A stretch of 64,000 nt of DNA from Bdellovibrionales bacterium (GCA_965219095.1 OZ244719.1:416001-480000); one strand, 5' to 3'; shown: positions 20,538-64,000, numbered from the stretch's first letter. Notes: generated from the sequence alone by a model not told the origin. Made by a program: numbers and translations.

Positions 20538-20541
20538 ATTT

Positions 20542-24448: not shown

Positions 24449-24468
24449 ATTTAAATTCCTTTCTGTTG

Positions 24469-34020: not shown

Positions 34021-35223
34021 TCAACTGCTAGGATCACTTTCCCTTATCCTTAATGAGGACTCATTTACAGTCTTTTGAGGGTGTGTAAGTGATTTTGTAA
34101 GTGATTTCGATTCGTACATGCTAGCTGTTCTTTCTGCCATATCAGAATTTATTAAAGCTACCGCTTTAGCATACCTTTGAGTCATAGCTTGATCTGTATG
34201 CCCAAGACTTGCTTGCACAGCGGAAAGACTTTTTGTCGCCATAAGTGCCATTGTGGCATAAGTATGACGGCAAATATGAGTCCCTCTCCAAGGAAGATTG
34301 CAGGCCTTAAAGGACTTATCAAAAGCCCAGCGAATGCTTGTATAAGACACAATTTCACCTTCTCTTGAATGAAAGACTAAGGGATTTTCGGGAGACTCAC
34401 TTTTCATAACCCTTAACAACTCCACAAGTCTCTCTGGAAGAACCAAAAGCCTGTTAGATGCTTTCGTTTTAGTACTCTCACAGAGAGTTATTTTGTTACC
34501 TCCCCAATCAGCTGTCCTTACCACACGTACAAACTTTTCTTCAAAGACAACTTCTTTCCACAAAAGCCCACAAGCTTCACTCACTCTAGCTCCTGTTAAA
34601 ATCATAAACTTTGCCAGTCTATAATAAACAGGGTTAGATATTTTCTGAAGCTTTTGAAGCCAAAGCTGTATTTCTTCTGGTCTAGCAAAGTAGTCAGGTC
34701 GTCTTAGTTTTTGAGTTGTCTCGTAGCAAATGTCTCTATGCATTTTCACTACAGGAACAACAAAGCTTGGATCAACGTAATTTCTCCACCAGTTTAGAAC
34801 AGCTACAAGTCGCCTAAACTCTGTTTTAAAACTCTGTCTTTGTCTACACTTCTTAGTTTTCTTTTGAAACCAAGAAATCCAAAGGCTTATCTCCTTTGCC
34901 TTTAAGTCTAACATCTTGACTTTATTTAAGGGGCTGTTAACTGAAAGATTTTTCAGATTCAATAAGATTTTTCTCTGGCTGGAAGCTCTCAGTTTAGGCA
35001 GATACTCTTTGATGTACTTTTCTACACAATCGCAAAAAAGCAATTCTTTAAGTTCTTTTTCTTCTATAGTTTCACCTTTTTCAAGGCGATCTTTTTCTCT
35101 ATCATGCCAAATGTAAGCTTGAGTTTTGTTTTCAAAAACTTTACTCGAAAGCCTCACTCCTCTGACATACACTTGAGCTTGATAGACGTTCTTTTTTTTT
35201 CTTTTAATTTTAGTTACAGACAT
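34021..35223 (-). CDS. int: Tyrosine integrase, near-identical to 8601-9803
   Basis: Same catalytic motifs; only a few amino-acid differences. Confidence 0.95.
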   Translation of the reverse strand: MSVTKIKRKKKNVYQAQVYVRGVRLSSKVFENKTQAYIWHDREKDRLEKGETIEEKELKELLFCDCVEKYIKEYLPKLRASSQRKILLNLKNLSVNSPLNKVKMLDLKAKEISLWISWFQKKTKKCRQRQSFKTEFRRLVAVLNWWRNYVDPSFVVPVVKMHRDICYETTQKLRRPDYFARPEEIQLWLQKLQKISNPVYYRLAKFMILTGARVSEACGLLWKEVVFEEKFVRVVRTADWGGNKITLCESTKTKASNRLLVLPERLVELLRVMKSESPENPLVFHSREGEIVSYTSIRWAFDKSFKACNLPWRGTHICRHTYATMALMATKSLSAVQASLGHTDQAMTQRYAKAVALINSDMAERTASMYESKSLTKSLTHPQKTVNESSLRIRESDPSS

Positions 35224-35492
35224 GATTTGAACTCCTTTCGTTCAATCCATTGCTGTAAGCGAGAAGACCTAAAATAAACCTTTCGGCCTATTTTTACATA
35301 AGGGATTTTCCTTAAAGAAACCCAATTTTGTAAAGTCTTCTTAGATAAACCTAAATTTTCTGAAAGCTCCTCAATAGTTATTAAATTGTCAAAGAACAAG
35401 CCCTTTTTTTGAGGGCGAATAGTGTTCTCTAAACTACTACTTTTCTTGATTGGTTTCAATTCTTTTTTATTCATTTTTATTTCTCCTTTCAA
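35214..35492 (-). CDS. Excisionase-like HTH protein
   Basis: Identical protein to 9794-10072. Confidence 0.8.
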   Translation of the reverse strand: MKGEIKMNKKELKPIKKSSSLENTIRPQKKGLFFDNLITIEELSENLGLSKKTLQNWVSLRKIPYVKIGRKVYFRSSRLQQWIERKEFKSCL

Positions 35493-43443: not shown

Positions 43444-46400
43444 TTTTTCACTAACCCCATTGAGCAGACTATTCTTGGTTTCTCATCCATTCGCTTTTCT
43501 TCTTTTTTATTTAAGAGAGTTTCATTTTTATCTTTTTCAACTATGTAAGAAATAATCTCACTTTCAGAAACCTTTCTCCTAAACATCCTTTTAAGGGTGT
43601 TTTCGGAATCATTAGATAAAGAATATTTAAAAATATCATCCTGAAGTTGAAGTAGGATATCATCTTTATTTTCTTTTTTTTCTAAAAGCTCAGACACTTT
43701 TCTTCTTGGATTTCTAGTCCCTCCAAGTCTTCCAATCATATCTATAGATTTTATAGATTCTTCTATACTCTTTAAACCATTTCTAACAACTTCGTAATGG
43801 TTTTCTCGTTTTTCAAGTGGCTTTGTCTCTGGCTGGCACTTTGCTGTTTCTAAAATTTTAAATTGGTTTTCTGTAAGAACTTCTCCTTTTTCATTAATCT
43901 GCATTAAGTAGTTTGTAATATGAGATTTAGCAAACAGTAAGACATCGCTAAGGCTTGAGTGCTCTTTTGTAGAATGAATAACATCTGGCATATTCTTAAT
44001 CTTCTCTTCTAAGGCAGGGTCTTTTTTTATTGCCTCTTCCCATACGCTAAGGGCTTGAGAAGGAAGATCAATGTCACTAAAGACCTCTTTTTCTAAAACT
44101 TCCGACTTTTCATTATACAAATCTATTATAATCTTCCTGTCTCCTCCAAAAAAGCTCTCATCTGTACCTATAACCTCTGCATTTTCTTTCAATCTTCTTT
44201 GTACACGAGCTTGTAAGTTAATAATCTTTTCTAGCTCTTGGTCTGGCATAAAAGAATAGCATAAAATCTTATCGGATTTTTGCCCTATTCTATCCACTCT
44301 CCCAACTCTTTGAATAAGTTTAATAATTGCCCATGGAAGATCATAGTTAACCACTACATGGCAGTCTTGGAGATTCTGTCCCTCGCTTAGAATGTCTGTT
44401 GCTATTAAAATATCAATTTCTTCTTCGTTTTCATTTTTGATCCCATAGTCATTACTCTTAGGGCTAAATCTATGAATTGAGTCTTGTATATTGCTCATAC
44501 CTCCGGTAACAAGATTTAATTTTTCTATTCCTCGGTTTTTAAGTTCATTTTCAAGATATTTTGCTGTGTCTTTATATTGAGTGAAGATAAGTGCTTTTTT
44601 TTCTTTACATTCATTTCTTAAAAGACTTTCAAGCTTTTTAAGCTTGAAATCTTTTTTAGGATTCCATTTCTGAGATTTCTTTAACAAATCAATAAGCTTT
44701 TCTGTATCTTGTCTGAGATTTTTTCTTAACTCTTCAGTAAAATAAGAAGATGAGATCCACCTGATGCTTTTACTTCCTTTCCTTTTATATTCATCGTAAG
44801 CTTTTTTCCCTTTTTTGTAAAAATTGTCAAATTCAGTAAAAAAGTATGTCCTTTCATTGTCTTCTTGAGAAAAGCCTGTAATATCACCTTCATTCTCATC
44901 AAAAGCATTTGTGATGATATCACTTCCTGAGTCTTTCACTATAAGATTATCTTTACTGTCAATGGCATAAATAAAGATACAATTTCTTAAAATATGCCTT
45001 TGTATGGCTTGAAGAAAAGAATAGCCACTGCTTTCTAAGGTTTTAAATAGGTTTATACGACAAAACCCTCTTGGTTGGGATCGAGCTTGTTCTAAATCTT
45101 TAAATAATTTCTTTTCTTTATCTGTTAAATTCTTAAGATCAGGCCTTTTGTATTTTGAAAGAGCGTATCTTGGAAGTTCTAGATCATTGATCATATCTAC
45201 AACTTCATCAGAAAAAAATCTCCTATACTGCTTATCAATGGAATATTTAACTGTCTTAGCTATCCTATTGGGGAAATAATTTTTTTTGCCCTTTATTTCA
45301 AGGTAATATCCAGTATCATCTTTATTTCCATAGTATTCTTTTATAAATGTCCTTGTCCTTCTAATAAGAAATAAAGACATAAGTTGTTGCCAATCTTCAG
45401 AGTGAGAAGACTGCTCAAAAGCTTTCAATGAACTAGGGTTACCTTGAAATGAATCCTCTTTTTCTTTTAGAAACTTTTCTGGCCTTATTCCTATATTTTG
45501 ATCAGAATCAAGAAAAAGTCCAAGCTGGCTTGATAGATCAGAATAGGTTTTATTATAAGGAGTTGCTGACAGTAAAACACATTTACTATCATTATTTGCA
45601 ATATAATCCTTTATTATCTTATATCTCTTACCTTGAGGATTTCTTAAATTATGACTCTCATCTATAATAACTAGATGATGTCTTCTTAGCTCCTGTAGAT
45701 CATACATAACTTTACTTATAGACATAATACGCCCTCTTAAACCATATTTATCTCTATAATCTTCCCACATTCTTTCAAGATTCTTTGGGCATAGAATAAG
45801 GGTTTGCCAACCATTTTCTTCTTCTAAAATTTTAGCAATAGCTACCGCTTGAAGAGTTTTTCCAAGTCCCACGACATCTCCAATAAGAACACCGCCTTTA
45901 TTCATTACATGGTGAGTGGCTATACGAATAGCCGCTGACTGAAAAGGAAATAAAATATCTTTTAACTCTTTTGGAATAAAAAAATCACTCAAGCCTTTCC
46001 TTGCATCTTCTGAAAGATGATACGCCATTTTAATATAGATATGATAGGGCATATAAAGAGTTTCTCCGGCCCAACTCTCTTCAATAATTTTTTCTATTTC
46101 TTCTGATATATCTAAAGAAAACTGATCTTGCCATTTATCTTCAAACCACTTGCAAAGATAGTCACAAGAACTCTGATCAAGAACATCTATATTGAGTTCT
46201 CCTTGTTTTTCTAATCCTGAAAGAGTTAAATTACTGCTTCCAAGAAAACCTATTTTCTCTGCAAATTCTTTGTGATTAAAAGTGAGGTATAATTTTGCAT
46301 GAAGTGGATGGCGAGTGAAGCACTTTACAATAACTTTCTTCTCTCTAATTTGCTTAGCCAAAAGTCTTAAACCATTTTCATCTTCATTAGAAGGCACTCC

Positions 46401-46715
46401 CAACATTAACTGCTTTTTAAAATTTTCTACTGCTTGATTCTTTAGTTTTCGAGCTAATTTATTATCTGGCTCTCTTAATTTAGATTCATCTTCTAAAAGC
46501 TCTTTTTTTAGCTGATAATTCGCACTATACATTCCAAGCAAAAGACGGCATTGGTTTTCTTCACCCCCCTTATACTCATTAATTGCTCTAGCAATTTTTT
46601 TCCAGCCTCTAAGGTTAAAGTAGCCTACAGAAATATCTGATCGGTAAGAGCGATTAAGAGCATTCTCTAGGCCAGATAAAAAAGAAACTTCTTTGTTGTC
46701 ATAAATTTTTGACAT
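43440..46715 (-). CDS. PLD-nuclease + SNF2-family helicase
   Basis: HAKLY..GSSNLT (PLD/HKD); DVVGLGKT, IIDESHN, LSATP, SEGQNLQ, QRVGRVDR. Confidence 0.88.
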   Translation of the reverse strand: MSKIYDNKEVSFLSGLENALNRSYRSDISVGYFNLRGWKKIARAINEYKGGEENQCRLLLGMYSANYQLKKELLEDESKLREPDNKLARKLKNQAVENFKKQLMLGVPSNEDENGLRLLAKQIREKKVIVKCFTRHPLHAKLYLTFNHKEFAEKIGFLGSSNLTLSGLEKQGELNIDVLDQSSCDYLCKWFEDKWQDQFSLDISEEIEKIIEESWAGETLYMPYHIYIKMAYHLSEDARKGLSDFFIPKELKDILFPFQSAAIRIATHHVMNKGGVLIGDVVGLGKTLQAVAIAKILEEENGWQTLILCPKNLERMWEDYRDKYGLRGRIMSISKVMYDLQELRRHHLVIIDESHNLRNPQGKRYKIIKDYIANNDSKCVLLSATPYNKTYSDLSSQLGLFLDSDQNIGIRPEKFLKEKEDSFQGNPSSLKAFEQSSHSEDWQQLMSLFLIRRTRTFIKEYYGNKDDTGYYLEIKGKKNYFPNRIAKTVKYSIDKQYRRFFSDEVVDMINDLELPRYALSKYKRPDLKNLTDKEKKLFKDLEQARSQPRGFCRINLFKTLESSGYSFLQAIQRHILRNCIFIYAIDSKDNLIVKDSGSDIITNAFDENEGDITGFSQEDNERTYFFTEFDNFYKKGKKAYDEYKRKGSKSIRWISSSYFTEELRKNLRQDTEKLIDLLKKSQKWNPKKDFKLKKLESLLRNECKEKKALIFTQYKDTAKYLENELKNRGIEKLNLVTGGMSNIQDSIHRFSPKSNDYGIKNENEEEIDILIATDILSEGQNLQDCHVVVNYDLPWAIIKLIQRVGRVDRIGQKSDKILCYSFMPDQELEKIINLQARVQRRLKENAEVIGTDESFFGGDRKIIIDLYNEKSEVLEKEVFSDIDLPSQALSVWEEAIKKDPALEEKIKNMPDVIHSTKEHSSLSDVLLFAKSHITNYLMQINEKGEVLTENQFKILETAKCQPETKPLEKRENHYEVVRNGLKSIEESIKSIDMIGRLGGTRNPRRKVSELLEKKENKDDILLQLQDDIFKYSLSNDSENTLKRMFRRKVSESEIISYIVEKDKNETLLNKKEEKRMDEKPRIVCSMGLVKK

Positions 46716-46717
46716 TT

Positions 46718-49700
46718 TTAAGAGGCCTTTTTAATGAACTTATCTTTTTGATAAGCATTAAGGGCAGATTCCTTTAATTTTTCTAATCTTTCTCTATTTT
46801 TTCCTGTCTTAAAGGTACTTAAAATGTATTCAAATTCTTTAAGGCTAAATCCATAAGTGTAGGTGACCATAGCATCAATTTCTCCCTGGAGTTTTAAACG
46901 CTCGTTTTTATCTTTTACCCCGCCTCTTTTTACTCTTATCTCATCTGCTAGATCATCAAACTTTTTTCCTATGCAGGTTAAAAGAGCTGATCGTTTTACA
47001 ATTTCTTTAAAGTAAGGGTCCTTTTCAGTAAGTCTGGGAATTCTTAAAGGGGTAATGTACTTCTTGTTTATATTAGAAGAGACTTTTTGCCTAATAAAGT
47101 AGTCCACAATAAAGCTATTGAAAAAAGCTTGTAGAAAAAGCATATAGTGATTGTTTTTCTTGGGATTTTCTGAATTTATATACACTCCATAAAGACTATT
47201 TGAGATAAAGTGATTTTTTGGAATCACCGCTGAAATAAGACTTCTTTCATTGGTATTGCTTGCTATCGTTCGAATGACAAGACGATGGTTTTCATAGCAT
47301 TTGTTTTTGAAAGCAAAGCCTGTTCTATTTTGCACTTTATGATCGTTTCTATCAATATAGCGATTGGCTTTTGAAAGATCAAAATTATATTGAAATTGAT
47401 GAATAACACTTCCTTTGTAAAGAGGAAGGTAACTTGAGAATAATTTTTTATCTTTGAATAAATCAGCATCATTTTTTTCATCAAATTCTCTGTAAAGCTC
47501 TACATTCCAAGAGTTTTTTAAATTTTCTCCTAGCATTGGAAAGCTAAGTATTTTTTTTAAAAGGTTTCTATCCCTTAAGTTTTTGAATTCAATGATTTGA
47601 CAATCACGAGGAGAAAGTTCTTTTATTTCCTTTATAGACTGCTTCATTGAATTCTCATTGGGGAATGAATTTAAAATTCTAAGACTTCTTGTATGAAAAT
47701 GGCAAGGAAACTTATCTTGAGGCTTTTCATTTTTTAAATTCAAAATAAGAAATTTAAACCTTGAATCAACTCCCTCAAATATTTTTCCCTTTCTGCCTTC
47801 CATTTTATTTTGAAAATCAATGAGACTTTCTATTTTAAGATTATCAAAAATAAAACATCTTAAAGCTATGGCTCCGTCATCTTTTGAAAGACCGCTAGGA
47901 AGCACGGCTCCGATAACCCCATTTTTATTTAAAAGATTAAAGCACCTTTCTGTAAATAAAAGATAGGTGTTCATATCTGAACTTGCATTCTTTTCTGTAC
48001 CGTCTGATTCGATAATTTTTCCCGTCTGCTTTTCATAAAATGAAGAAAAATAATTTCTTTGAAATTGGTAGAATTCTTCTGTTTTTAAGTAATCAGTTGC
48101 TATTTTGCCTTTGTTTAACAGTTCCTCTCTTTTTTCCTCAAACTCTTTCTTATCATTTTTTTTCTTTTTTATAGATTTATCATACCTAGAAAAAAACTCT
48201 CTATCTTCAGTTTTAACCTTATCCCAAGGAGGGTTTGTTACAATAACATCAAAACCTCCTCTATCTATAATATCATTAAAAGCAATGTCCCAATGAAAGG
48301 GATTTAAATTTTTAGAATCATCTTCACTTTCAAAATCTTTTGGAAATACACTTCGTTTCTTTATTGTTTTCTTTTTGCCTTTAATTTCTGTGATTTCAGG
48401 ATATCTCAAGCCCTTTTCATTGCATTTATTAGCAAGAGTACGGCTTAGGTTAGAATTATTTTCTTCTAAAAATTTATGTATTTTTTCTTTTAGTTCTTTC
48501 AATTTATCAAAAGACAAGGGTTTCTTTTTATAGTTATTAACTAGCTTATTGTATTCATCTTTAATTTGAGGGTAAGATTTGTCTAAAAGAGATAGTTGCC
48601 CTTTATTAGGTTCTTTTAAAAAGCCTATGAGAGAGTTTCCATGCATAATATTAAAGTCCATATTAGGAAGAGGTTCTAACTCTTCCATGGTTAAAGCTGA
48701 GCTTACAAGGGATAAGAAAAGCCTCAGTTTACAAACTTCTGTGGCTTCTTTCATAATGTCAACACCGTATAGGTTTTTAAGTATAATGTTCTTTTTTATA
48801 CCGTAAGGTATGCTTTTATGGTCATTTCTAAAATTTTCATACCAATTTTTTAAATCTCTGTTATTTGATGTTTCTATTTTTCCAATAACAGGTGAGTATA
48901 TGTTAAGTAGCTCTTTCATAGCAGAAACTAGAAAGGCTCCAGAACCTACAGCTGGATCTAAAATTGTTAGCGTATTTAAAATGCTATCTTCGTTTGTAAG
49001 TAAAACCTTACAAAGATTTGTGTCGAGATTTAGATTCATATCACTGATAGTCTTAAATGAGTGACCTTTTTTGCTTAGCTTATCTAGAATGCATTTTTCA
49101 ATGGTATTTCTACTAAGATATGAAGTAATCTCATCTTTAGTGTAGTAGGCACCCATACTTTTTTGCTGAATTTCAGTAATGTATTTTTCAAAAATATAGC
49201 CTAAAACATCTGGACTGATTTCTTTTCCCTCACCCTTACTATCTTCAATATGCCACTCGTATTTAGAAAATATATCAAATGTTTTTTCAAAAGCTTTGTC
49301 TTTTATTTTTATATCAGGATACTTATTTTCTATAAGATGTGGGGTAAAAAGTCCACCGTTTAGGTACTTGATTTCACCGAGCATTTTTTTTGCTTCTTTA
49401 CTTCTTTCTTTTAGTTTTTTTGCAAACCCCTCAAAAAATAAAAGCTTTAGAAAATTGGAATAGTAGATATCTTTTTTTGTTTTTTTTAGTTCCTCTAGCT
49501 TATCGTTCAAGTAGTTATAGTTATTATCTACAAACCCTTTTTTTTGTAAAAACCAAATAAACATTAGCCTATTAAGGACAACGGAAGAGTACCAGTTTTT
49601 ATCTTCTTTCTTATCAATTCCAGAGATATATTTTTGGAAATCGAAATGGTTGTTCTTGAAGTCTTCATAAAACTTCTTAGTAACTTTTTCTGTATCAAAA

Positions 49701-50158
49701 GCTTTTTCTAGCTTTTCTCCTATTTCAGATATTTTTGGCTCATCTTCAATGTTAAAATGTATATTTGCAATTTTACTTATAAAGAAATCCCCGTTTTGAT
49801 TTTTATAGAAGTCATGAACTCTAACTTTATTATTTTTTGAAAGATAAGACCATGAGCAATAGGTTTTATTATCAGAAAAGATGAGAATATGTTTGTTATG
49901 AATTTTCTTTATTTCTTTATGAACTTTTTCCCTATTTAAATCAAAATTTTTAAGATTTTCTTCTCTAAATTGTAATACTTTTGCTCCGCCAATCTCTGCT
50001 AGGGGAGAGTATTCTATTTTTTTAGAACTATCTATACGGATTGACCGATTCTTTTTATCTTCTGAGCAATTCCAACCCAGACCCTCCGTGAACAATTCTC
50101 GTAGCTTAAAATCTCCAAGACATTCTCGTAGCTTCTTAGCATTGATAGGCGATGACAT
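46718..50158 (-). CDS. Eco57I/type IIG-like N6-adenine DNA methyltransferase with TRD
   Basis: YLNGGLF, GAYYT, LDPAVGSGAF (motif I), FDVIVTNPPW (motif IV), C-terminal TRD-like region. Confidence 0.88.
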   Translation of the reverse strand: MSSPINAKKLRECLGDFKLRELFTEGLGWNCSEDKKNRSIRIDSSKKIEYSPLAEIGGAKVLQFREENLKNFDLNREKVHKEIKKIHNKHILIFSDNKTYCSWSYLSKNNKVRVHDFYKNQNGDFFISKIANIHFNIEDEPKISEIGEKLEKAFDTEKVTKKFYEDFKNNHFDFQKYISGIDKKEDKNWYSSVVLNRLMFIWFLQKKGFVDNNYNYLNDKLEELKKTKKDIYYSNFLKLLFFEGFAKKLKERSKEAKKMLGEIKYLNGGLFTPHLIENKYPDIKIKDKAFEKTFDIFSKYEWHIEDSKGEGKEISPDVLGYIFEKYITEIQQKSMGAYYTKDEITSYLSRNTIEKCILDKLSKKGHSFKTISDMNLNLDTNLCKVLLTNEDSILNTLTILDPAVGSGAFLVSAMKELLNIYSPVIGKIETSNNRDLKNWYENFRNDHKSIPYGIKKNIILKNLYGVDIMKEATEVCKLRLFLSLVSSALTMEELEPLPNMDFNIMHGNSLIGFLKEPNKGQLSLLDKSYPQIKDEYNKLVNNYKKKPLSFDKLKELKEKIHKFLEENNSNLSRTLANKCNEKGLRYPEITEIKGKKKTIKKRSVFPKDFESEDDSKNLNPFHWDIAFNDIIDRGGFDVIVTNPPWDKVKTEDREFFSRYDKSIKKKKNDKKEFEEKREELLNKGKIATDYLKTEEFYQFQRNYFSSFYEKQTGKIIESDGTEKNASSDMNTYLLFTERCFNLLNKNGVIGAVLPSGLSKDDGAIALRCFIFDNLKIESLIDFQNKMEGRKGKIFEGVDSRFKFLILNLKNEKPQDKFPCHFHTRSLRILNSFPNENSMKQSIKEIKELSPRDCQIIEFKNLRDRNLLKKILSFPMLGENLKNSWNVELYREFDEKNDADLFKDKKLFSSYLPLYKGSVIHQFQYNFDLSKANRYIDRNDHKVQNRTGFAFKNKCYENHRLVIRTIASNTNERSLISAVIPKNHFISNSLYGVYINSENPKKNNHYMLFLQAFFNSFIVDYFIRQKVSSNINKKYITPLRIPRLTEKDPYFKEIVKRSALLTCIGKKFDDLADEIRVKRGGVKDKNERLKLQGEIDAMVTYTYGFSLKEFEYILSTFKTGKNRERLEKLKESALNAYQKDKFIKKAS

Positions 50159-51952: not shown

Positions 51953-52285
51953 AGCCGAATTCACTCTTTGGTAAGTTATCCATAGCTCTTTTCATAAAGA
52001 GATGGAGTCCAAAGACTTTGGTGTTGACACTATAGGATAAACATGTCCTTAGGAGTTCGTTAGTTAATAAATGCTTGCGAACTAACGTATTCTTTTGAAC
52101 TCTTTTCATCAAATTATTTTTATTTCCTCAATTTCATGTGTGATCTATAGGTGATCAATAATTAAAATGTGGGTACTATCGAGAAGTTTCAGGAAAATCA
52201 AGGTGCTTACAGTAATGGATAAGTTATTTATATTTATTTATTTTTTACTGATTCCAACAACATAGCAGATCTCTTTTAGCCGATT

Positions 52286-52705
52286 ATAGGAATTCTTGCA
52301 GCAGTTGCCATTCCTGCATTCGATGGGTTTAGAAAAAAAGCACGAAGCGGTGAAGCTAAAACTAACTTAGGCGCTCTTTATACAGCAGAAAAAGCTTTTA
52401 GTTATGAGCACTCAGGCTACTGTGCTAGTCTTGGAACAATAGGTTTTGAAGAACCCCAAGGAACACGCCACTACGCTATTGGCTTTCATTCTACAGGTAA
52501 CAAAGCTAACTCAGCAGTTACAAATTGTACTGTTACAGGAGAAAATTATGACTCTAATGGTGGAGGTACCCCTATTACTGCTATAACGGGTACATCATGT
52601 AAAGTAGACCCTGTAGACAAATTTATAGCTTGTGCTGAAGGAGAAATGGCTTCAACAAATTCCAACTGGAAAATTGATGATGAGAAAGTAATAGGTCAGC
52701 TATAA
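52286..52705 (+). CDS. pilA: Leaderless type IVa pilin 3' cassette 3 (not in ORF track)
   Basis: Hand translation IGILAAVAIPAFDGFRKKARSGEAKTNLGALYTAEKAFSYEHSGYC...FIACAEGEMASTNSNWKIDDEKVIGQL*; in-frame TAG at 52277-52279 and no standard start codon before the core. Confidence 0.88.
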   Translation: MGILAAVAIPAFDGFRKKARSGEAKTNLGALYTAEKAFSYEHSGYCASLGTIGFEEPQGTRHYAIGFHSTGNKANSAVTNCTVTGENYDSNGGGTPITAITGTSCKVDPVDKFIACAEGEMASTNSNWKIDDEKVIGQL

Positions 52706-52855: not shown

Positions 52856-54082
52856 TCATTTCACTTCCAAAATTTCTTTGCCTTTAAGTTTAAGAGGTGA
52901 AGCTTTGAAGCTTGTTTCTGAAAGTTGGTTTAAACTTTCTAATTCATACATCTGAGCTGTTTTTTCCGCCATATCCGAGTTAATGAGAGCTACCACTTTC
53001 GCATACCTTTGAGTCATAGCTTGATCCTTATGTCCAAGACTTGCTTGGACAGCTGAGAGGCTCTTTGTGGCCATCAAAGCCATTGTGGCATAAGTATGAC
53101 GGCAAATGTGAGTTCCTCTCCAAGGAAGTCCGCAAGCTCTAAAAGACTTATCAAAAGCCCAGCGAATGGTCGTATAAGGCACAATTCCACCTTCCATTGA
53201 ATGAAAGACTAAGGGGTTTTTGGAATGTTTCTTTATGGCTTTTAACATCTCTATAAGTTTATCAGGAAGAGTAAGCACTCTAACCGAGGTCTTTGTCTTT
53301 GTTGATTCCCTAATCTGAGGAACATCTAAAGCCCAATCAGCTGTTCGAACCACTCTTGCAAACTTGTTTCTAAAATCAACTTCTTTCCACATAAGTCCAC
53401 ACGCTTCACTTACTCTCGCTCCTGTTAAAATCATAAACTGGGCTAAGTGGTAGTAAACAGGATTAGAGATCTTTTCAAGCTCAGAAAGCCACTTTCTAAT
53501 CTCTTCAGGTTTAGCAAAGTAATCAGGCCTTTTGATTTTTGAAGGCCTCTGATGTTGATAGCACCTGTTTCTATGTCCTTGGACAATGGGAAAGGTAAAG
53601 CTAGGATCAATGTTGTTCCTCCACCAATGAAGAACTGAGCCTAAACGTCTTAACTCCATTTTAAAAGAGTGACGTTGATTTTTGCACTTTTGCTTCTTAA
53701 AAAGCCATTCAATCCAATGATCTATACTGATGTGATGTAAGTTTGACATTCTAACTTTTGCTAAAGGACTGTTAAGTAAGAATTTTTGGCATATGTTTTG
53801 AATTTTCTTTTGACTGCTAGCTCTTAAAGAAACAACATACTCTTTAAGATATCTTTTTACACAATCTTCAAAGAAAATCTCCTCTCTTTCTTGTGGAAGA
53901 AAGTTAGTTCCATGAAAAAATCGTTGCTTTTGTTTTTCTTCCCATAGAATAGCTTCCGTCTTTGTTGGAAAAGACTTGGATTTGACACGAACTCCTCTAA
54001 CATACACTTGAGCATAATAGACAGTTTTATTTTTTCCTTTTCTTTTTGTTATCGACATGATTTCTCCTTTTGTTGAAGCCAT
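52856..54082 (-). CDS. int: Tyrosine integrase, divergent paralog (likely start at MSITKRK)
   Basis: TGARVSE, HICRH, LGH, RYA; C-terminal half close to the other two integrases, core-binding region diverged. Confidence 0.95.
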   Translation of the reverse strand: MASTKGEIMSITKRKGKNKTVYYAQVYVRGVRVKSKSFPTKTEAILWEEKQKQRFFHGTNFLPQEREEIFFEDCVKRYLKEYVVSLRASSQKKIQNICQKFLLNSPLAKVRMSNLHHISIDHWIEWLFKKQKCKNQRHSFKMELRRLGSVLHWWRNNIDPSFTFPIVQGHRNRCYQHQRPSKIKRPDYFAKPEEIRKWLSELEKISNPVYYHLAQFMILTGARVSEACGLMWKEVDFRNKFARVVRTADWALDVPQIRESTKTKTSVRVLTLPDKLIEMLKAIKKHSKNPLVFHSMEGGIVPYTTIRWAFDKSFRACGLPWRGTHICRHTYATMALMATKSLSAVQASLGHKDQAMTQRYAKVVALINSDMAEKTAQMYELESLNQLSETSFKASPLKLKGKEILEVK

Positions 54083-54357
54083 TTCTCTAACTTATCATTC
54101 GGGAAATAGACGTTTCGGCCTATTTTCAAGAAAGGGATTTTTCTCATAGACATCCAATTACGGATGGTCTTAGGAGAAATTTCCAAAAACTCCGAAAGCT
54201 CTCTAAGGTTTATTAAATTGTCAAAGAACAGGCCCTTTTTTTGAGGGCGAATAGTGTTCTCTAAGCTACTATTTTTTTTGATTGGTTTCAATTCTTTTTT
54301 ATCCATTTTTATTTCTCCTTTTAAAATATGGCGAAGAAGCTTAAAAAGCTCCCTCAT
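54049..54357 (-). CDS. Excisionase-like HTH protein (likely start at MDKKEL)
   Basis: LINLRELSEFLEISPKTIRNWMSMRKIPFLKIGRNVYF. Confidence 0.8.
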   Translation of the reverse strand: MRELFKLLRHILKGEIKMDKKELKPIKKNSSLENTIRPQKKGLFFDNLINLRELSEFLEISPKTIRNWMSMRKIPFLKIGRNVYFPNDKLEKWLQQKEKSCR

Positions 54358-56806: not shown

Positions 56807-57532
56807 TTATTTTTTGGAATTGGTATTACTAAAGTTTTTTGGTTTAAAGTGTTTGGCATTAATAATACTTGCACTACTTCCTAAAGCTTGAATCACAAAA
56901 AGACCTTCTTTCTCAGCCTTTCTAGCTGAACCTTGATTGGCCTTAAGATAAGCTACAGCACCATAAATTATTTTATCTTTATACAAAGGAAGCATTTGTT
57001 TAAAGTTTTTTAATTTGTTTATAAAATGAGTCAAATCTTTTAGCCATAAGGTGGTCTTGACTTCTGTCACAACCACTTCACTGCCATTAACTACAATAAT
57101 GTCAAATTCAAAAGGCTCATCATTCCATACCCCGGAAGACTCTTGAGAAATACTCTGCACTTCAATGTTTCTTTCTTGAAGAAGTTTAACTAAATCACCT
57201 TTTACCAGAGCCTCCATAAGCTTTCCCCATTGACCTATGAAAAGTTCGTCTAACTTTGCCATACGTTTATCAGACTTTTTAAACTGACGATCGGTCTCAA
57301 GTTTTGACTCTTTTAACAAACGCTCTGTTTCTTTGTGGGCTTTTGCGGTCTCTTGTTGAGCTTTAGAGGTTTCTTTGAGTTGGCGGTCAGTCTCTTTTTG
57401 AGCTTTTGCCAGCTCTTTAATTCCCTTAAAAGCTCCTTTAATAGATTCCTGAAGAGCTTTGGGAATCTGGTTGTTTTTTGTTACTTTTATAGCCATATTA
57501 TTTATAGTAGTATAAAAAAACTTTCTTTTCAA
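56807..57532 (-). CDS. Coiled-coil/PD-(D/E)XK-like protein, short-repeat paralog
   Basis: C-terminal ~170 aa near-identical to 32286-33161, with fewer QKETDRQLKE repeats. Confidence 0.7.
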   Translation of the reverse strand: MKRKFFYTTINNMAIKVTKNNQIPKALQESIKGAFKGIKELAKAQKETDRQLKETSKAQQETAKAHKETERLLKESKLETDRQFKKSDKRMAKLDELFIGQWGKLMEALVKGDLVKLLQERNIEVQSISQESSGVWNDEPFEFDIIVVNGSEVVVTEVKTTLWLKDLTHFINKLKNFKQMLPLYKDKIIYGAVAYLKANQGSARKAEKEGLFVIQALGSSASIINAKHFKPKNFSNTNSKK

Positions 57533-57894
57533 GTGGTTTTAAAAAAAAAATTCTTTTAAATAGCCTCACTGCGACATCTCTCTCTAACCTACTGTAAAAA
57601 CAAGAAAATAAGAAAGTGCCAGATAAAAAAGTGCCAGAAAGATGCCGCTAGAGATAATACAACAATTAAATCCGCTTTCAAAAGTAATACAAAAGCTAAG
57701 CTCTTATAAAACTACAAGTAACTTATCACACACTTAGTTTTTTTAGAGTGAGTTCAGAGTAAAAAATTAAGGAACCTTAGAGAACTTTCAGGAAATTTTA
57801 AGATAGATAGTGACGGCTAAGTTGTTAATTTTATTATTTCCTTTTAAATTTTTTAATGATTCTAAGAACTTACAAAAGTTCACAGACCATTTTT

Positions 57895-58341
57895 ATAGGA
57901 ATTCTTGCAGCATTTGCCATTCCTGCATTCGATGGGTTTAGAAAAAAAGCACGAAGCAGTGAAGCTAAAACCAATTTAGGGGCTCTTTTTACTGCACAGA
58001 AAGCTTTTTTCTATGAACACTCAACTTATTGTGCTCATCTAGCTGATGTAGGTTTTTCTGTAACCGGAGCAGACACATATTACACCATTGGTTTTGGTGC
58101 GAACTCTGGTGGTAGTAATAGTGGTTGTACCGCAGGTACTGCACCTGACTGGAAATCAGATGGCAGTAAAGCAACTGCACAAGCTCCTGAAGCAGCTTGT
58201 GATGCTGACACAACAGATTTTACTGCTGGTGCAGTCGGTCCAAAGGATGGTACTGACCTTATAGACGTAGATAGTAACTATCGTATGGACCAAACAAAGA
58301 AGCTTAACTCCAATAGTATTTTCGACAAAGCTGGTTGTTAA
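57895..58341 (+). CDS. pilA: Leaderless type IVa pilin 3' cassette 4 (terminal, most divergent)
   Basis: Core with one V>F change; no integrase follows. Confidence 0.85.
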   Translation: MGILAAFAIPAFDGFRKKARSSEAKTNLGALFTAQKAFFYEHSTYCAHLADVGFSVTGADTYYTIGFGANSGGSNSGCTAGTAPDWKSDGSKATAQAPEAACDADTTDFTAGAVGPKDGTDLIDVDSNYRMDQTKKLNSNSIFDKAGC

Positions 58342-58377
58342 TAACAAAGCCTAATTCTTAGAAACACTTCTTAAGTT

Positions 58378-58410
58378 TTTCAAACCCCTCTCTTAAAGAG
58401 GGGTTTGAAA
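58378..58410. terminator. Hairpin between convergent cassettes 4 and 5 (probable shared terminator)
   Basis: TTTCAAACCCCTCT-CTTAA-AGAGGGGTTTGAAA. Confidence 0.7.
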
Positions 58411-58428
58411 TGAAGTTTAGATATTTTT

Positions 58429-58869
58429 TTATTGACTCGCAATTTTTTTGTTTTGATCAATTTGCCAGTTGGAATTTGTTGAAGCCGTTTCTCCTTCAGC
58501 ACAAGCTATGAACTTCTCAGGAGTTGTTGGAGTTGCTTCTTCTGTTAAGCAAGCAGCATCCAGATCCGATGCTGATTTTTTATTAGCAGTAGTAGCAGTA
58601 GAATCATAAGCTAGTGTTCCTGAGGAGGGACAAGCAGCAGAAGCAGCACTAGTTGTACCTGCAGCCTTAAATCCAACAGCGTAGTGGCGTGTTCCATCAG
58701 GTTCATCAAAACCTACTGCTTTAAGATTAGAACAGAAGCCGTTTTGTTCATAGAAAAAAGCTTTCTGTGCAGTAAAAAGAGCCCCTAAGTTAGTTTTAGC
58801 TTCACCGCTTCGTGCTTTTTTTCTAAACCCATCGAATGCAGGAATGGCAACTGCTGCAAGAATTCCTAT
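58429..58869 (-). CDS. pilA: Leaderless type IVa pilin 3' cassette 5 (inverted)
   Basis: Same core on the minus strand, preceded by arm type A. Confidence 0.85.
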   Translation of the reverse strand: MGILAAVAIPAFDGFRKKARSGEAKTNLGALFTAQKAFFYEQNGFCSNLKAVGFDEPDGTRHYAVGFKAAGTTSAASAACPSSGTLAYDSTATTANKKSASDLDAACLTEEATPTTPEKFIACAEGETASTNSNWQIDQNKKIASQ

Positions 58870-59188
58870 AAATTGATTTGTAAACTTTTGTAAGTTTGCA
58901 GAATCACTAAAAAACAAAAAGAAAATAATAAATTAACCTACCCATCTATTCCCGAATGTTAAGACTTTTCCCCTACATTGAACCTAGTTGATCACGACAA
59001 AACTCCGTACAAGAACGCATATGAGAATCACGATAGTTTTGATTAAAAACAAACTTTAATTTCTTTTGTACTTACTTTTGAAAGCCAGGATTTAATTGTT
59101 GTATTATCTCTAGCGACATCTTTCTGGTACTTTCTTATTTTCCTGTTATATTACAGTAGGTTAGAGAGAGATGTTGCAGTGAGGCTAT

Positions 59189-60064
59189 TTGAAAGAAATT
59201 CTCTTAAAATCACTTGAAAAGAAAGTTTTTTTATATTATTATAACCGCATGTCTTTAAAAAAAACCAATCATTCAATTCCTAAAGCTGTATGGGCTTCGA
59301 TTCAAGCTGTTGCTAAAGAAACTCAAGAACTGGCAAAGTCTCAAAAAGAGAATGCCAAAGCTCAAAAAGAGACTGACCGCCAACTCAAAGAATCTCAAAA
59401 AGAAATCGCTAAAGCTCAAAAAGAGAATGCCAAAGCTCAAAAAGAGACTGATCGCCAACTCAAAGAAACCTCTAAAGCTCAAAAAGAGACTGATCGCCAA
59501 CTCAAAGAATCTCAAAAAGAAACCGCAAAAGCCCACAAAGAAACAGAGCGTTTGTTAAAAGACTCAAAACTTGAGACCGATCGTCAGTTTATAAAGTCTG
59601 ATAAACGTATAGCAAAGTTAGACGAACTTTTCACAGGTCAATGGGGAAAGCTTATGGAGGCTCTGGTAAAAGGTGATTTAGTTAAACTTCTTCAAGAAAG
59701 AAACATTGAAGTGCAGAGTATTTCTCGAGAGTCTTCCGGGATATGGAATGATGAGCCTTTTGAATTCGACATTATTGTAGTTAATGGCAGTGAAGTGGTT
59801 GTGACAGAAGTCAAGACTACCTTATGGCTAAAAGATTTAACTCATTTTATAAACAAATTAAAAAACTTTAAACAAATGCTTCCTTTGTATAAAGATAAAA
59901 TAATTTATGGTGCTGTAGCTTATCTTAAGTTCAATCAAGGTTCAGCTAGAAAGGCTGAGAAAGAAGGTCTTTTTGTGATTCGAGCTTTAGGAAGTAGTGC
60001 AAGCATTATTAATGCCAAACACTTTAAACCAAAAGTTTTTAGTAATACCAATTCCAAAAAATAA
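59189..60064 (+). CDS. Coiled-coil/PD-(D/E)XK-like protein
   Basis: Identical to 32286-33161. Confidence 0.7.
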   Translation: MKEILLKSLEKKVFLYYYNRMSLKKTNHSIPKAVWASIQAVAKETQELAKSQKENAKAQKETDRQLKESQKEIAKAQKENAKAQKETDRQLKETSKAQKETDRQLKESQKETAKAHKETERLLKDSKLETDRQFIKSDKRIAKLDELFTGQWGKLMEALVKGDLVKLLQERNIEVQSISRESSGIWNDEPFEFDIIVVNGSEVVVTEVKTTLWLKDLTHFINKLKNFKQMLPLYKDKIIYGAVAYLKFNQGSARKAEKEGLFVIRALGSSASIINAKHFKPKVFSNTNSKK

Positions 60065-60996
60065 TTCGACATTCTTTTGTAGCATAAGGTTCCAGAAGAG
60101 ATCTCCAAAAGGCTTAAGTTCTCAAAATACATAGGACTTAAGTTAACAGTAAGTCGGTTTCTTAACTGAGTTACAATTTAGGGGTCAACATGGGGACACT
60201 GCCCCCATGTATAGGGGCAAAAGAAAATTTTTATGCTCCTTTCTCCAGTTATAACCCAAGTTTAGAATCAAAATGGAGGAAGAAAATCAACGTCACTCTG
60301 ATAAACTTCCAAAGGGTTTTTATGGTTTGTTTGAAGATTTAAAACCAAGCTCTCATATCACTTTGACCGATCGTAAAGAGGGGGGCTCCAATTTGAGAAG
60401 TTAAATGGAGCTTTTTTAAAAGATGTGAGCTCTGTCCACAATAAAGGAAAAAGTGTGTCTAGAATTGGACAAAACAAAAGAGATGCCAAAGCTTAAAATC
60501 ACTTAAGATCATTTCATTTTTTTTATTCAGAAAAAATGTTAAGAAAGTGTCTGACCCCTTAAAAGCTTATTTTTCACTCTATCTTAAGATTTTCTTATTG
60601 GGGAGTATTTTCTGCTTTTCATTACTTATAAAAAACAAAGTCTATAGTTTCTTTCATTCTAAGAAAGCAGATGAAACATCAAAGGAAGTTTGATGACAAA
60701 AGAAAATTTGTCTCAAAAAGACGAGAAGAAAAGGTGCAAAATGAAAAAACAAGAATTCCATTTGAGGGTTCCTAGAAAGACCTTTTTTTTATCCCAACTG
60801 CAATTCACTAGTGCAACCTTTTCTTTCATCATAACCTCATAAAATCCCTTATGGTAGAAAAATCAAAGCCAAAGATATTTTTGAAAAAGCCCTTTGTCTT
60901 ATAACAGAGGATCATTTGTTTGAACTAAGAGATTCAAGTATAGATATAAAGGATTGATTAGCTCTTTTTGAAATAACAACTTTTATTACAGTCTTA

Positions 60997-61311
60997 TCAT
61001 TCATCTTTGTAGTCCTCTGTTTTCTCTTTTTTTTTGAACTTTTTATAATAGTCTTTTGCAGTTAAACTACTAAGCGACTGGAAAAACAGCCTATCTTCAA
61101 AGCTAGGCTTGAGATGCTTTAATAGCTGAACTACGTCTTTTCCTCCTAGCTTAAGGCCTAGGATTCCTTTTTCACATTTTTTTAAATCAGAAAGAGGAAC
61201 GTTCAGAATAACAGCAATTTCTTCCTGTGATCTCCCTGACCTAATACGCATCTCTCGAATTTTACGCCCTAAGCAGTAGGTTATCATTGTCTTTAAAAGT
61301 TCTTTTTTCAT
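60997..61311 (-). CDS. XRE-family HTH protein
   Basis: Identical to 31039-31353. Confidence 0.7.
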   Translation of the reverse strand: MKKELLKTMITYCLGRKIREMRIRSGRSQEEIAVILNVPLSDLKKCEKGILGLKLGGKDVVQLLKHLKPSFEDRLFFQSLSSLTAKDYYKKFKKKEKTEDYKDE

Positions 61312-61442
61312 AAGATGTACTGTCTTTGAGTCTTTTAGGGTTTTCTTTCAAATACATACGACCGTATGGTAACTAAAAGAAAATAGAAAGTCTAGAGTAA
61401 TTACATATGTATATAACGATTTAATGCAGGGAGATGTAAACT

Positions 61443-61700
61443 TTGGCTTATAACCCTAAAGGCATTCAAAACACTGTCAAGCGATCTGAATGGCAGAGCA
61501 TTCAAAAAATTGGCTCTAATATAAAAAAGCTTAGAGAAAAAAGAAACTGGACTTTAGAATCAGTAGAAGATCGTGGCTATCGTTCATGGAAGCACTGGCA
61601 AGCTATTGAGGCTGGGAAAAGAAACGTCAATGTGACAACCATTCTTAGAATCGCAAAAGTTTTGAAAGTAAAGCCTGAACAACTTTTTTCAAAACTTTAA
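61443..61700 (+). CDS. XRE-family HTH regulator
   Basis: Identical to 30650-30907. Confidence 0.8.
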   Translation: MAYNPKGIQNTVKRSEWQSIQKIGSNIKKLREKRNWTLESVEDRGYRSWKHWQAIEAGKRNVNVTTILRIAKVLKVKPEQLFSKL

Positions 61701-61782
61701 TTCTTTAATAAGAAGACAGTTTTCAAATTCATAATATAAAGTAAAGACATTGATCTGTTTTCTTTAATTTCTCTAAAAAACC

Positions 61783-63315
61783 GTAACTGCTCACCTACAT
61801 TGTTCAGTTATCCCTAACTTTAGACCTGTTTTAAGATAAAAGTCTTGCTCTTACAGATTTTCTTTTAAATACTTTTTTCAAATGACAATAAATAAGACCT
61901 CCATCAGAAATGAGATTAAAAATATAAGAAGTGACTTTGATAAGTTTGCAAAGAAAGGTTCTGTGCCTACTGAGATTTCTGTGATTGTTGAATCTCTCTT
62001 TAAGGTTGTGAACATTCTGATTGTTGTGTTTTTAGAAAAACAGGTTCGAAAAAATTCCAGCAACAGCGGTCTTCCTCCTTCGCAAGATTTTAGTCGTCAA
62101 GGGAATCGTAATAAGAAAGCTAGTGGGAGTCAGAAAAAGGGCTCTAGACTTGATAACAGTAAAGATACAAACAGTGAGGAGACTGTCTCTCCCTCAGAGT
62201 GTTCTCAGTGTGGGATGTGTTTAAAGACAGCAGAGGTAAAAAGCCTTGAGAAGCGTAAAAAGATTGATATTTTTTATGAAATTCAGACCCATACTGTAAC
62301 TTCTGAAGTTAAGGATTGTCCCTCATGTGGAGCTAGAAATAAAGGTCAATTCCCTAAAGGTATGAGTGGTCCTCTTCAGTATGGTGTAGGCATTAGAGCT
62401 TCCATCATCAATTTCATTATAGTTCAGATGCTGTCTTTTAGAGCGTGTTGGGGAACATTACATGGGGCTTATAGGTCGAATGATTTCTCCTGCAGTTATG
62501 TTGAGATACATTGCTGAATTAGGAGAGTTTCTTAAAAGTTGGGAAGAGCAGATGAAAGAAAAGATACTTGAATCAGAGGTCATTCATGTTGATGAGACCT
62601 CTATGAGGGTTAAGGGTAAAAACTACTGGATTCATACTTATAGTTCAGGAGAATTAGTCTTGCAGTTTCTCCACCTTTCAGGTGGAAGGGAAGCCATAAA
62701 AGATATTGGTCTCTTGGATAGATATGCAGGAGTGCTTGTGCATGATTGTTGGAGTCCTTACTTTTGTTATGATAAGATAACTCATGCTTTGTGTGTGGCT
62801 CACCTTTTGAGAGAGCTTAAATTTATAGAAGAAAGCAATGGATTCAAATGGGCTACAAATCTCAAAAAACTTCTTAAAGAGACTGTGGAGTTAGTTCATA
62901 AAAAAGAGTCAAGAGTTCTGACTCAAAAAGAGTACGAAACTCTTCAGAGAAGGTATAGGAGTATTCTTACAAAAGGCTTAAAAGAGCTTCCAGAATTTCC
63001 TAAGAAAAATGGCAAGAAAGGACGAATAAAGCATACACAAGCTCAAAACCTTTGGCTGCGATTTAAAAAGTATGAAGCAGAAATACTGTGTTTTGCTAAA
63101 AGAAAGAACGTAGATCCTACTAATAACAGAGCTGAAAGAGATCTAAGAATGACTAAAGTGAAAAAGAAAGTGTCAGGGTGTTTCAGAACAGAAGAAATGG
63201 CGAAATATTTTTGTCGTATTACCAGCTATGTTAAAACAATGAGAAATAGAGGGTATTCTTCTTTAGAAGCCATCTCTATGGCTTTAAATAAAAACTTACG
63301 AGAGTGAGCAGTTAC
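61783..63315 (+). mobile_element. IS66-family element with frameshifted transposase and 8-bp TSD AAAAAACC
   Basis: TIRs GTAACTGCTCAC; AAAAAACC at 61775-61782 and 63316-63323; +1 frameshift near 62440 splits ORFs 61882-62517 and 62462-63307. Confidence 0.92.
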
Positions 63316-63401
63316 AAAAAACCAAGCTATTGTTTTCATATATGCACATTTTTAAGAATCTGTTTGAAAGAAATACACACTTGAATGCTGTTTGAATGTT
63401 G

Positions 63402-63530
63402 CAGATCTGTTACAAATTTGCATATTTGTTACAAATGTAACAGATCTGTTACAAAATTGCATATTTGTTACAAATGTAACAGATCTGTTACAAATGTATC
63501 GGATTCAGCAAATTTGTAACAAATATGCAA
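63402..63530. repeat. 39-bp tandem repeat (~2.4 copies) built from TGTTACAAA units, plus one inverted unit
   Basis: CAGATCTGTTACAAATTTGCATATTTGTTACAAATGTAA at 63402 and 63441, partial at 63480; inverted at 63511-63530. Confidence 0.85.
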
Positions 63531-63634
63531 CTTTTCAAAAAAAAACAAGAAAAACCTTTTTTTTCATTTAAAACTTTATTGTAGCAAAAGGTTTTATAAA
63601 AGAGTCCTTTTTATAAAACCAAAAAGAAAGGAGT

Positions 63635-64000
63635 ATGTATGAAGCAAAAAACAAAAAAAGAGTTCTTATGAAGATAGAAGCACCTCAAAACCTTGTAAGC
63701 TTAAAAGCTCAAATCCAGACCCTTACTTCTCCAGAATTTAGAAACTCCTCTATACATGAAGAAAAAGAAATCGATCTCCTGGATGTTATGAAAAAAAATC
63801 AAATAGCCTATTTCCAGTTGAATTTAAACAGCTATGGTTTTTTAGGTAAGAAAATCGGTAAAATTCTAGTTCAAGATCTAAAGGTTATAAGCTCTCAGAT
63901 TCAATCAGGACAAGTGGATTTTAAGCCTTTACTTTTAGGGGTCTTGATTGATGAATTTGGATCTTTTGCTACACCTGATTTTTCAGATTTTTTAAAGCAA
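63635..64000 (+). CDS. N-terminally truncated coupling-protein (TraD C-terminal) homolog, runs off the window
   Basis: AAGGAG RBS; MYEAKNKKRVLMKIEAPQNLVSLKAQ..IAYFQLN..VQDLKVISSQI..LIDEFGSFATPDFSDFLKQ. Confidence 0.8.
   Translation, partial: MYEAKNKKRVLMKIEAPQNLVSLKAQIQTLTSPEFRNSSIHEEKEIDLLDVMKKNQIAYFQLNLNSYGFLGKKIGKILVQDLKVISSQIQSGQVDFKPLLLGVLIDEFGSFATPDFSDFLKQ

Follow-up and report, generated by a model that had tools for sequence, protein, structure and literature searches.

A pilin locus with nine cassettes and one leader

The DNA analyzed here, referred to as the window, is a stretch of 64,000 nucleotides (nt) from a Bdellovibrionales bacterium whose genome (G000; 3.1 Mb, 34% G+C) consists of two contigs, C1 and C2. 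The window corresponds to C1:416001-480000, and a window position is the C1 position minus 416000; coordinates given without a contig name are window positions. It lies within a large array of type IV pilin gene ends, most of which are followed by an integrase gene. The four cassette proteins that could be seen in the window served as queries against the whole genome, and 133 open reading frames (ORFs) of C1:396000-520000 were scanned with Pfam, with family calls made at E ≤ 0.001. C1 was found to carry nine type IV pilin 3′ cassettes, five on the plus and four on the minus strand, and the entire locus spans 95.5 kb (C1:411277-506770), with a transaldolase gene and a BamB-like gene on its two sides.

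The cassettes form two arms. On the left, the outermost member, cA (C1:411277-411777, plus strand), is a complete prepilin gene. It is followed on the same strand by c1 (7943-8416), a leaderless pilin 3′ part with a convergent integrase gene (8601-9803, minus strand) and a xis gene (9794-10072, minus strand) behind it, by c2 (33433-33894; integrase 34021-35223 and Xis 35214-35492, both on the minus strand), and by c3 (52238-52702; integrase 52856-54082 and Xis 54049-54357, both on the minus strand). The innermost cassette, c4 (57892-58341, in an ORF at 57856-58341), contains a repeated core sequence at 57895-57955 with one mismatch and has neither a leader nor an integrase gene behind it. Both are also lacking from c5 (58429-58872, ORF 58429-58917), the first minus-strand cassette, whose core (58869-58809) is exact. 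The right arm continues beyond the window with c6 (beginning at C1:483082, with its core, the sixth counted from the left edge of the window, at C1:483034), c7 (beginning at C1:500813) and the outermost cassette c8 (beginning at C1:506776), all on the minus strand.

The frame from core to stop is open in all nine cassettes (129 to 149 codons, with 44 invariant alignment columns). C128 is invariant, a second Cys is present in seven of the nine, and a G+C-rich hairpin of its own stands behind every stop codon. In the Pfam scan, c5 scored above the cut-off for both Pilin_GH (32.6 bits) and Pilin_PilA (30.7 bits), and the scores of c4 for these families fell below it.

A prepilin leader (MKKIQKIKKQKG; FSLIELMVVVA) is present once, at C1:411277; when the 40 N-terminal residues of cA were used as a tblastn query (E ≤ 10), the genome yielded no further leader of this family. 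The cA gene encodes a complete prepilin of 166 amino acids (aa), comprising the leader, the core and an element-linked 3′ part that is open to the stop codon. It scored above the cut-offs for N_methyl (40.9 bits; cut-off, 21.2) and TIGR02532 (37.3 bits) and reached 82 bits with NF041775, the model for Myxococcus-type PilA, below that model's cut-off of 400. The traits of a PilA-like type IV pilin are present: the leader has the G/F cleavage site and E5, the N-terminal helix is hydrophobic, and the C-terminal part carries Cys, as a pair in seven of the nine cassettes. Genes for a prepilin peptidase, a secretin and a platform protein were found in the genome. C2 is home to different pilin families that match the N-terminal part of cA.

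A preliminary description of this DNA had suggested counting the leader-bearing 5′ ends on each side of the locus. The left side has one and the right side none; thus, the right arm has no expressed copy in this assembly. The core of c8 adjoins, within a few nucleotides of the boundary common to all cores, an internal transposase gene fragment in antisense orientation; this sequence occurs at just one other place, C1:230383-230566. This junction falls inside the transposase gene, not at an insertion sequence end, and ATAG is common to the two sequences at this point. Illegitimate recombination may have produced it, or the integrase may have acted on a look-alike site. The 2.5-kb stretch to the right of c8 (C1:506775-509200) is made up of assorted fragments, IS66 and ISL3 among them, and has 100 repeat matches of at least 60 nt elsewhere in the genome, which bears a heavy load of insertion sequences throughout.

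A 61-nt coding core bounds seven integrase-bearing units

The core is 61 nt long. A fuzzy search of the genome returned 10 copies with at most two mismatches (seven are exact, one differs at a single position and two differ at two positions), and the repetition is therefore not due to chance. All copies begin at the same nucleotide (..TTATAGG), which constitutes a sharp left boundary. Five kinds of sequence were found to the left of it: the true prepilin leader at cA only, flank type 1 at c1, c2, c5 and c7, type 2 at c3 and c6, type 3 at c4, and the transposase fragment at c8. An exact 38-nt core pattern had no match in metagenome contigs. Where the seven integrase-linked cassettes read ALYTAE(K/R)A (ctttatacagca), c4 and c5 carry the signature ctttttactgc (ALFTAQKAFFYE; LFTAQKAFFYE in both), which is also found in a decayed copy on C2. 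The latter belongs to a third, decayed locus (C2:2315419-2317687), where one of the two cores with two mismatches stands with a frameshifted pilin 3′ part (near 2317657) and adjoins an integrase fragment with 71% identity across residues 273 to 378. A short piece of flank plus core lies near C2:1757486.

Behind seven of the nine C1 cassettes, a convergent Phage_integrase (PF00589) ORF is found with its stop codon 130 to 290 nt away, overlapped by an HTH_17 ORF; c4 and c5 alone lack this arrangement. All seven integrase ORFs are intact and fall into three types of 399, 400 and 408 aa (int399, int400 and int408), which are 60 to 64% identical to each other. From the center outward, the order is int408, int400, int400 and int399 in the left arm and int399, int400 and int399 in the right arm. 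With the excisionase model TIGR01764 (cut-off, 28.8 bits), the 92-aa Xis scored 44 bits and the 85-aa Xis 27.2 bits, just under the cut-off.

These genes belong to seven elements (E0 to E3 in the left arm and E-1 to E-3 in the right arm), all of which are bounded at both ends by the core, with zero to two mismatches and one shared left boundary. Core-to-core lengths are 12.6, 25.5, 18.8 and 5.6 kb for the units of the left arm and 8.2, 17.7 and 6.0 kb for those of the right arm. The pilin 3′ part opens each unit, and a coiled-coil gene and an arm adjoining the following core close it. The int400 units continue with a 90-aa ORF and then a 531-aa TraD/VirD4-like coupling protein, which is present in E1 and E-2 and split by an insertion sequence in E2; in the int399 elements, it is reduced to a 200-aa remnant. 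This order is the anatomy of tandem integrated elements: the junction at cA has the attL form, the internal junctions are attP-like, as a core connects one element's end to the integrase-proximal end of its neighbor, and those at c4 and c5 have the attR form.

The window contains 8 copies of the heptamer TCGTGAT, where 2.4 would be expected, and 7 of the 8 lie inside arms beside cores; the heptamer was found twice at positions -164 and -128 relative to the core and once in the gap that separates a pilin stop from an integrase stop. These counts are not independent, because the arms are copies of one another. The heptamers are candidate arm-type sites.

The two arms meet tail-to-tail

Cassettes c4 and c5 converge on one hairpin, as the preliminary description had claimed, although its label "head-to-head" was wrong: the genes stand tail-to-tail, with their stop codons 87 nt apart. 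The shared hairpin (58381-58407) has a perfect 11-bp stem (CAAACCCCTCT/AGAGGGGTTTG), and its stem-loop almost matches that behind c3. The segment 58339-58431 has a minimum free energy of -24.8 kcal/mol (z = -3.9), and none of 200 shuffled sequences folded as well. A consensus scan did not call the hairpin a terminator, because no T run is present on either strand.

The contiguity of this junction was checked in four sequencing runs of one study, which contained 28 to 64% of the sampled words and were available as contigs, none recorded as RNA. A 785-nt short-read contig of run X1, which starts in unique c4 sequence, crosses the hairpin and reaches unique c5 sequence, bridges 57990-58774 with no other letters and no gaps, and a 633-nt contig of run X2 covers 57959-58579 with 3 other letters and 12 gaps. 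The misassembly at 58341-58429 that the preliminary description had allowed for is thus not seen, as both contigs cross the junction.

Mirrored sequence and copying between the arms

To the right of c5, an element end, a coiled-coil gene, two helix-turn-helix (HTH) genes, an IS66 element and a coupling-protein remnant follow each other. This order had been described as a mirror image of the left side, and the sequence agrees: C1:445036-449687 (window 29036-33687), covering the IS66 element, both HTH genes, the coiled-coil gene, the element end and the core, is 98.9% identical, in inverted orientation, to C1:479315-474663 (window 63315-58663). From the mirrored order, four features had been predicted past position 64000, and all of them were found within 3 kb of the window edge, namely, a perfect 19-bp inverted repeat (C1:480498-480555), an HTH_17/excisionase-like ORF (C1:480922-481179, plus strand), a Phage_integrase ORF (C1:481146-482345, plus strand) and the minus-strand core of c6. 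As regards transfer functions, the 19-bp inverted repeat is only a candidate site.

Further copies connect the arms. Over 3.7 kb, the cA module (C1:411341-415066) matches the inverted c6 module at 99.7% identity and has the same 3′ part, the three int400 modules are 99.1 to 99.5% identical, and inverted repeats of 3.1 to 5.2 kb at 99% identity link the two arms. In E-1, the IS66 element is a simple insertion with the target duplication AAAAAACC, and the tail of E1 contains the same IS66 element and the same neighbor, with the duplication on that side only. Therefore, the IS66-bearing element type reached both arms after the insertion. Its copy in E1 appears to have recombined later through the insertion sequence.

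Related integrases and pilin cassettes in other genomes

Relatives of the integrase were found at 76 loci in species-representative genomes, nearly all at 37 to 48% identity. All but one of these loci belong to metagenome-assembled genomes (MAGs) labeled Bdellovibrionales, Bdellovibrionaceae, Bdellovibrionota, Oligoflexia or Oligoflexales or to unassigned proteobacterial bins (75/76), and the weakest relative (25% identity) is from a Hoeflea MAG. A leader-bearing pilin-like ORF flanks the integrase at 12 of the 76 loci, at a distance of about 1 kb or less in 8 cases. As a control, 80 distant pilin loci (450 kb) from a pilin profile search of metagenomes were inspected; no close relative was among them, and homologs of the integrase, Xis and the coupling protein were found at none of the 80.

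Two MAGs contain leaderless pilin cassettes whose homology starts sharply in the IPAY codons. In G002:C29 (L023:6383-12703, the same as L083), a full pilin gene on the minus strand is accompanied by a 100% identical leaderless copy 2.5 kb downstream and by an inverted leaderless cassette of 75% identity on the far side of a divergent integrase gene; the homology of both leaderless cassettes begins within the codons for IPAYNEY. The second locus, L067:6644-9891, has the same layout, with pilin (minus strand), integrase (plus strand) and leaderless cassette (plus strand), and a similar nonpilin flank before the core. In this arrangement, opposed cores enclose the leader and the integrase gene, as would be expected of a minimal, two-state invertible switch. 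Compared between the two MAGs, the cross pairs of cassettes scored slightly higher than the straight pairs (371 and 362 versus 350 and 276), which, by small margins, slightly favors a swapped state.

Two other arrangements were noted. At five places in G016:C1 (L016-L020), a module consists of a 106-aa membrane-like ORF, a leader-bearing pilin gene and an integrase relative on one strand, with some of the integrases lacking about 60 N-terminal residues. These five pilin paralogs were rejected as instances of the same architecture, as they have no sharp core start and their homology covers the leader and fades in the 3′ part. At L054:6692-9804 (OZ242172.1), an integrase relative is flanked by two divergent leader-bearing pilin genes that are 46% identical to each other.

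Origin of the two arms

The locus is probably a pile-up of integrative elements that use the pilin 5′ coding core as their attachment site and that entered two convergent genes. An element's integrase-proximal end carries a core copy, a complete divergent pilin 3′ part and its own terminator; integration would therefore place the incoming 3′ part behind the promoter, leader and first 24 codons of the resident gene, while the older 3′ part would be displaced downstream and become a leaderless cassette. Two resident pilin genes would have stood tail-to-tail around one hairpin, and repeated integration could have built the left arm (leader-cA, c1, c2, c3 and c4 on the plus strand) and the right arm (c5, c6, c7 and c8 on the minus strand), with each integration moving the leader outward. 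The right arm would later have lost its leader, with cA remaining as the sole complete prepilin gene, and insertion sequences together with homologous recombination between element copies would have reshaped the arrays. Cassettes c4 and c5 look like the displaced ends of the resident genes, on the basis of their missing integrase, common hairpin and common signature. Outward growth from two convergent pilin genes had been one of two explanations in the preliminary description. The anatomy agrees with it in that the seven outer cassettes are integrase-linked and c4 and c5 are not, whereas the second leader was not found. The sequence itself shows the anatomy, the sharp left edge common to the cores, the linkage to integrase and Xis, the single leader and the unbroken junction; a second, ancestral leader, the order of events and the action of the integrases on the core are what we infer.

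Several observations weigh against a pile-up in two genes or require additions to it. The second leader is not observed, and the c8 junction lies inside a transposase gene instead of at an insertion sequence end. An empty site, an excised circle or an attP junction was not seen in the runs, which consist of contigs. The 41 genomes searched included none from this genus in which synteny could bear on the ancestral gene pair; the genes flanking the locus had no match in the pilin loci of two relatives. Pfam detected neither relaxase nor type IV secretion genes in the elements at the above threshold, which leaves transfer from cell to cell unexplained. Finally, E0 and E-3 agree at 99.55% over 3.1 kb once the pilin part is passed, but only about 49% of residues are shared between cA and c8; likewise, the int400 modules are 99% alike, yet the pilin parts of c1, c2 and c7 are 59 to 79% alike. 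Homologous exchange must be added, because a crossover in the core keeps each 3′ part tied to its integrase. Such swaps of the pilin part would need an exchange between the core and a conserved sequence that starts about 80 to 100 nt behind the pilin stop.

We also considered that a single array existed, from which one large inversion via inverted insertion sequences or element copies made the right arm, with no second pilin gene. The abundance of insertion sequences in this genome, as seen to the right of c8, the long inverted repeats between the arms and the one-sided target duplication at the IS66 element of E1, a mark of recombination through an insertion sequence, would all suit such an event. 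However, the c4/c5 junction consists of 87 nt and a hairpin and contains no insertion sequence or element copy, and the breakpoint would need to fall exactly between two complete cassettes. In addition, the c4/c5 signature separates both cassettes from every integrase-linked one, and the order of element types is not mirrored between the arms. We therefore regard a single inverted array as improbable. That repeat collapse or a misjoin in the assembly created the convergent junction or the mirror arm would be conceivable in so repetitive a region, and the run that covers the DNA best may be the very sample behind the assembly; this explanation is nevertheless extremely unlikely given the contigs of X1 and X2 across the junction and the single-copy variable parts of c4 and c5.

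The second explanation in the preliminary description, inversion between opposed cores as a pilin switch, was supported in its geometry but not by breakpoints. As an active system, the integrase, with or without Xis, would recombine the leader-proximal core with any other core, and the cassettes would be a pilin repertoire; we consider this possible but unlikely. With the direct partners c1 to c4, the elements in between would be excised and the leader fused to the 3′ part of c1, c2, c3 or c4, an outcome of low probability in our view. It is similarly doubtful that, with the opposed partners c5 to c8, 63 to 95 kb would be inverted and the leader fused to one of their 3′ parts. The coordinates do permit such events, as inversion between the plus-strand core of cA and a minus-strand core places a cassette in frame behind the leader, and a long-range shufflon is mechanistically possible. 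The seven intact integrase ORFs, the nine open frames with their invariant columns, and the leader and integrase between two opposed cores in the L083 and L067 MAGs point in the same direction, and the cross-pair scores of these MAGs add a weak hint. On the other hand, none of the 15 joints listed of 24 has its breakpoint in a core, and the contigs revealed no heterogeneity. The joints that change strand lie in element ends or coupling-gene remnants with inverted paralogs of 84 to 95% identity, and their shorter sides comprise 32 to 76 letters. Copies that are 99% alike would have open frames even without selection, and the cassettes are parts of whole elements of 5.6 to 25.5 kb rather than of short dedicated segments. 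An element-built chromosomal pilin repertoire, in which mobile elements deliver new pilin surface domains and integrase and Xis switch one leader among nine 3′ parts, with a reduced form (leader and integrase between two opposed cassettes) kept as a dedicated two-state switch in related Bdellovibrionota, is only a tentative proposal with low odds.

The joints 57696/59063, 57584/59170 and 55005/64000, which connect opposite strands, were rejected as evidence for inversion because they are located in inverted paralogous stretches. The joint 61767/63317, which skips 1549 nt, was rejected as a form of E-1 free of IS66, as its letters fit the uninterrupted paralogous junction of E0 equally well; it has five A's instead of six, as does the E0 junction. 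The contigs of the runs end at repeats.

Further genes of the elements

The right end of E3 is formed by a coiled-coil gene (56807-57532, minus strand; 241 aa) and an arm of flank type 3 (57533-57891, plus strand) that abuts the core of c4. On the other side, the arm of E-1 (58873-59188, minus strand; flank type 1) contains TCGTGAT at 58991-58997 and 59027-59033 and is followed by a paralogous coiled-coil gene (59189-60064, plus strand; 291 aa), the product of which is identical to that of 32286-33161 (minus strand). The E3 protein matched no Pfam family, and the coiled-coil protein received no useful PHROG or NCBIfam assignment. An identity as Hjc was rejected, as one paralog alone reaches the model, with 21.2 bits against a cut-off of 21.1.

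An HTH_31 gene (60997-61311, minus strand) and an HTH_3/Cro-C1-type gene (61443-61700, plus strand) are the mirror copies of 31039-31353 (plus strand) and 30650-30907 (minus strand), respectively. The IS66-family insertion (61783-63315, plus strand) is flanked by its 8-bp duplication and encodes the transposase in two frames (61882-62517 and 62462-63307). The remnant of the TraD/VirD4-type coupling protein (200 aa, plus strand) starts at 63635 and continues past the window edge at 64000 to the window-equivalent position 64237; matches to TraG-D_C and SXT_TraD were obtained on its identical copy L003:3354-3953. Upstream of it, at 63385-63520, a tandem repeat of about 33 nt encodes CNRSVT(N/K)LHICYK three times in one frame and belongs to a module shared with E0.

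Three elements carry larger cargo. E1 contains a Druantia-type operon (15018-25710, minus strand) with DruA (PF14236, E = 1.2e-84) at 24469-25710, ORFs of 948 and 365 aa without a Pfam family, and an 1839-aa DEAD/Helicase_C/MZB protein. In E2 (43440-50158, minus strand), a 1091-aa protein with PLD and SNF2-helicase domains is encoded beside a 1146-aa Eco57I/MmeI-type methyltransferase, and from its domains this looks like a restriction or defense pair. E-2 encodes a pentapeptide-repeat protein, Multiubiquitin, a prokaryotic E2, a ThiF/JAB fusion and DUF6527 in one operon (L002:10997-14904; C1:490997-494907), which we take to be a ubiquitin-like conjugation system of the kind reported as antiphage.

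Significance and comparison with known systems

Type IV pili are receptors for phages and also serve in attachment, motility and DNA uptake. An element that replaces nearly all of the exposed pilin subunit would change the cell surface in one step on its arrival, and the same elements bring defense cargo: the Druantia-type operon, the PLD-SNF2 helicase with its methylase, and the ubiquitin-like conjugation operon. If the stored cassettes are used, mobile-element integration would be linked with surface variation. Full-text searches, judged by titles and the starts of abstracts, turned up no description, among the papers listed, of an element that gives a pilin gene a new tail.

In Moraxella bovis and Moraxella lacunata, the Piv system has two opposed pilin 3′ parts, and crossover takes place within the conserved 5′ coding sequence. 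Piv is a DEDD (IS110-like) recombinase that acts on an invertible segment of about 2 kb, whereas the recombinases described here are PF00589 tyrosine integrases with Xis; the sole DEDD_Tnp_IS110 match was an 86-aa fragment 9 kb to the left of the locus. In Neisseria, leaderless and promoterless pilin 3′ copies (pilS) lie near one expressed gene (pilE) and act by RecA-dependent gene conversion; they are not known to be linked to integrases. Leaderless 3′ copies are stored here as well, but seven of the nine cassettes are integrase-linked. For streptococcal comYC, a review presents prophage insertion into the competence-pilin gene as an interruption that blocks transformation (PMC12378983). There too, a mobile element targets a pilin-type gene, but the expressed pilin gene of the present locus stays complete.

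The sfx sites of shufflons are 19 bp long. The IncI plasmid shufflon (Rci, sfx and pilV) combines a tyrosine recombinase with a constant pilin 5′ part and alternative 3′ parts, some of which are inverted (PMC5430464; 10.1101/2024.10.25.620183), and its segments are short and dedicated, with short, asymmetric sfx sites at their borders at which inversion is supported (10.1101/2024.10.25.620183). The one leader, the nine 3′ parts and the tyrosine recombinase found here are alike. However, our locus has neither short asymmetric repeats nor short dedicated segments: its repeats are at least 61 nt long, with five on the plus and four on the minus strand in direct and inverted orientation, and the segments are the elements of 5.6 to 25.5 kb with integrase and Xis.

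Phage 21 and e14 are icd prophages of Escherichia coli. Prophages of icd integrate inside a protein gene with a substitute 3′ end (PMC3603311). The pilin locus resembles them in that a tyrosine integrase targets a conserved coding stretch, the element's own 3′ end keeps the ORF at its full length, and the displaced 3′ copy remains at the far end. In contrast to icd, the pilin substitute comprises about 92% of the mature protein, with about half of the residues differing; the part exposed on the pilus surface is exchanged rather than conserved, and seven elements are stacked in two opposed arms. Integration into a protein gene with a replacement 3′ end is already known, for example, at icd.

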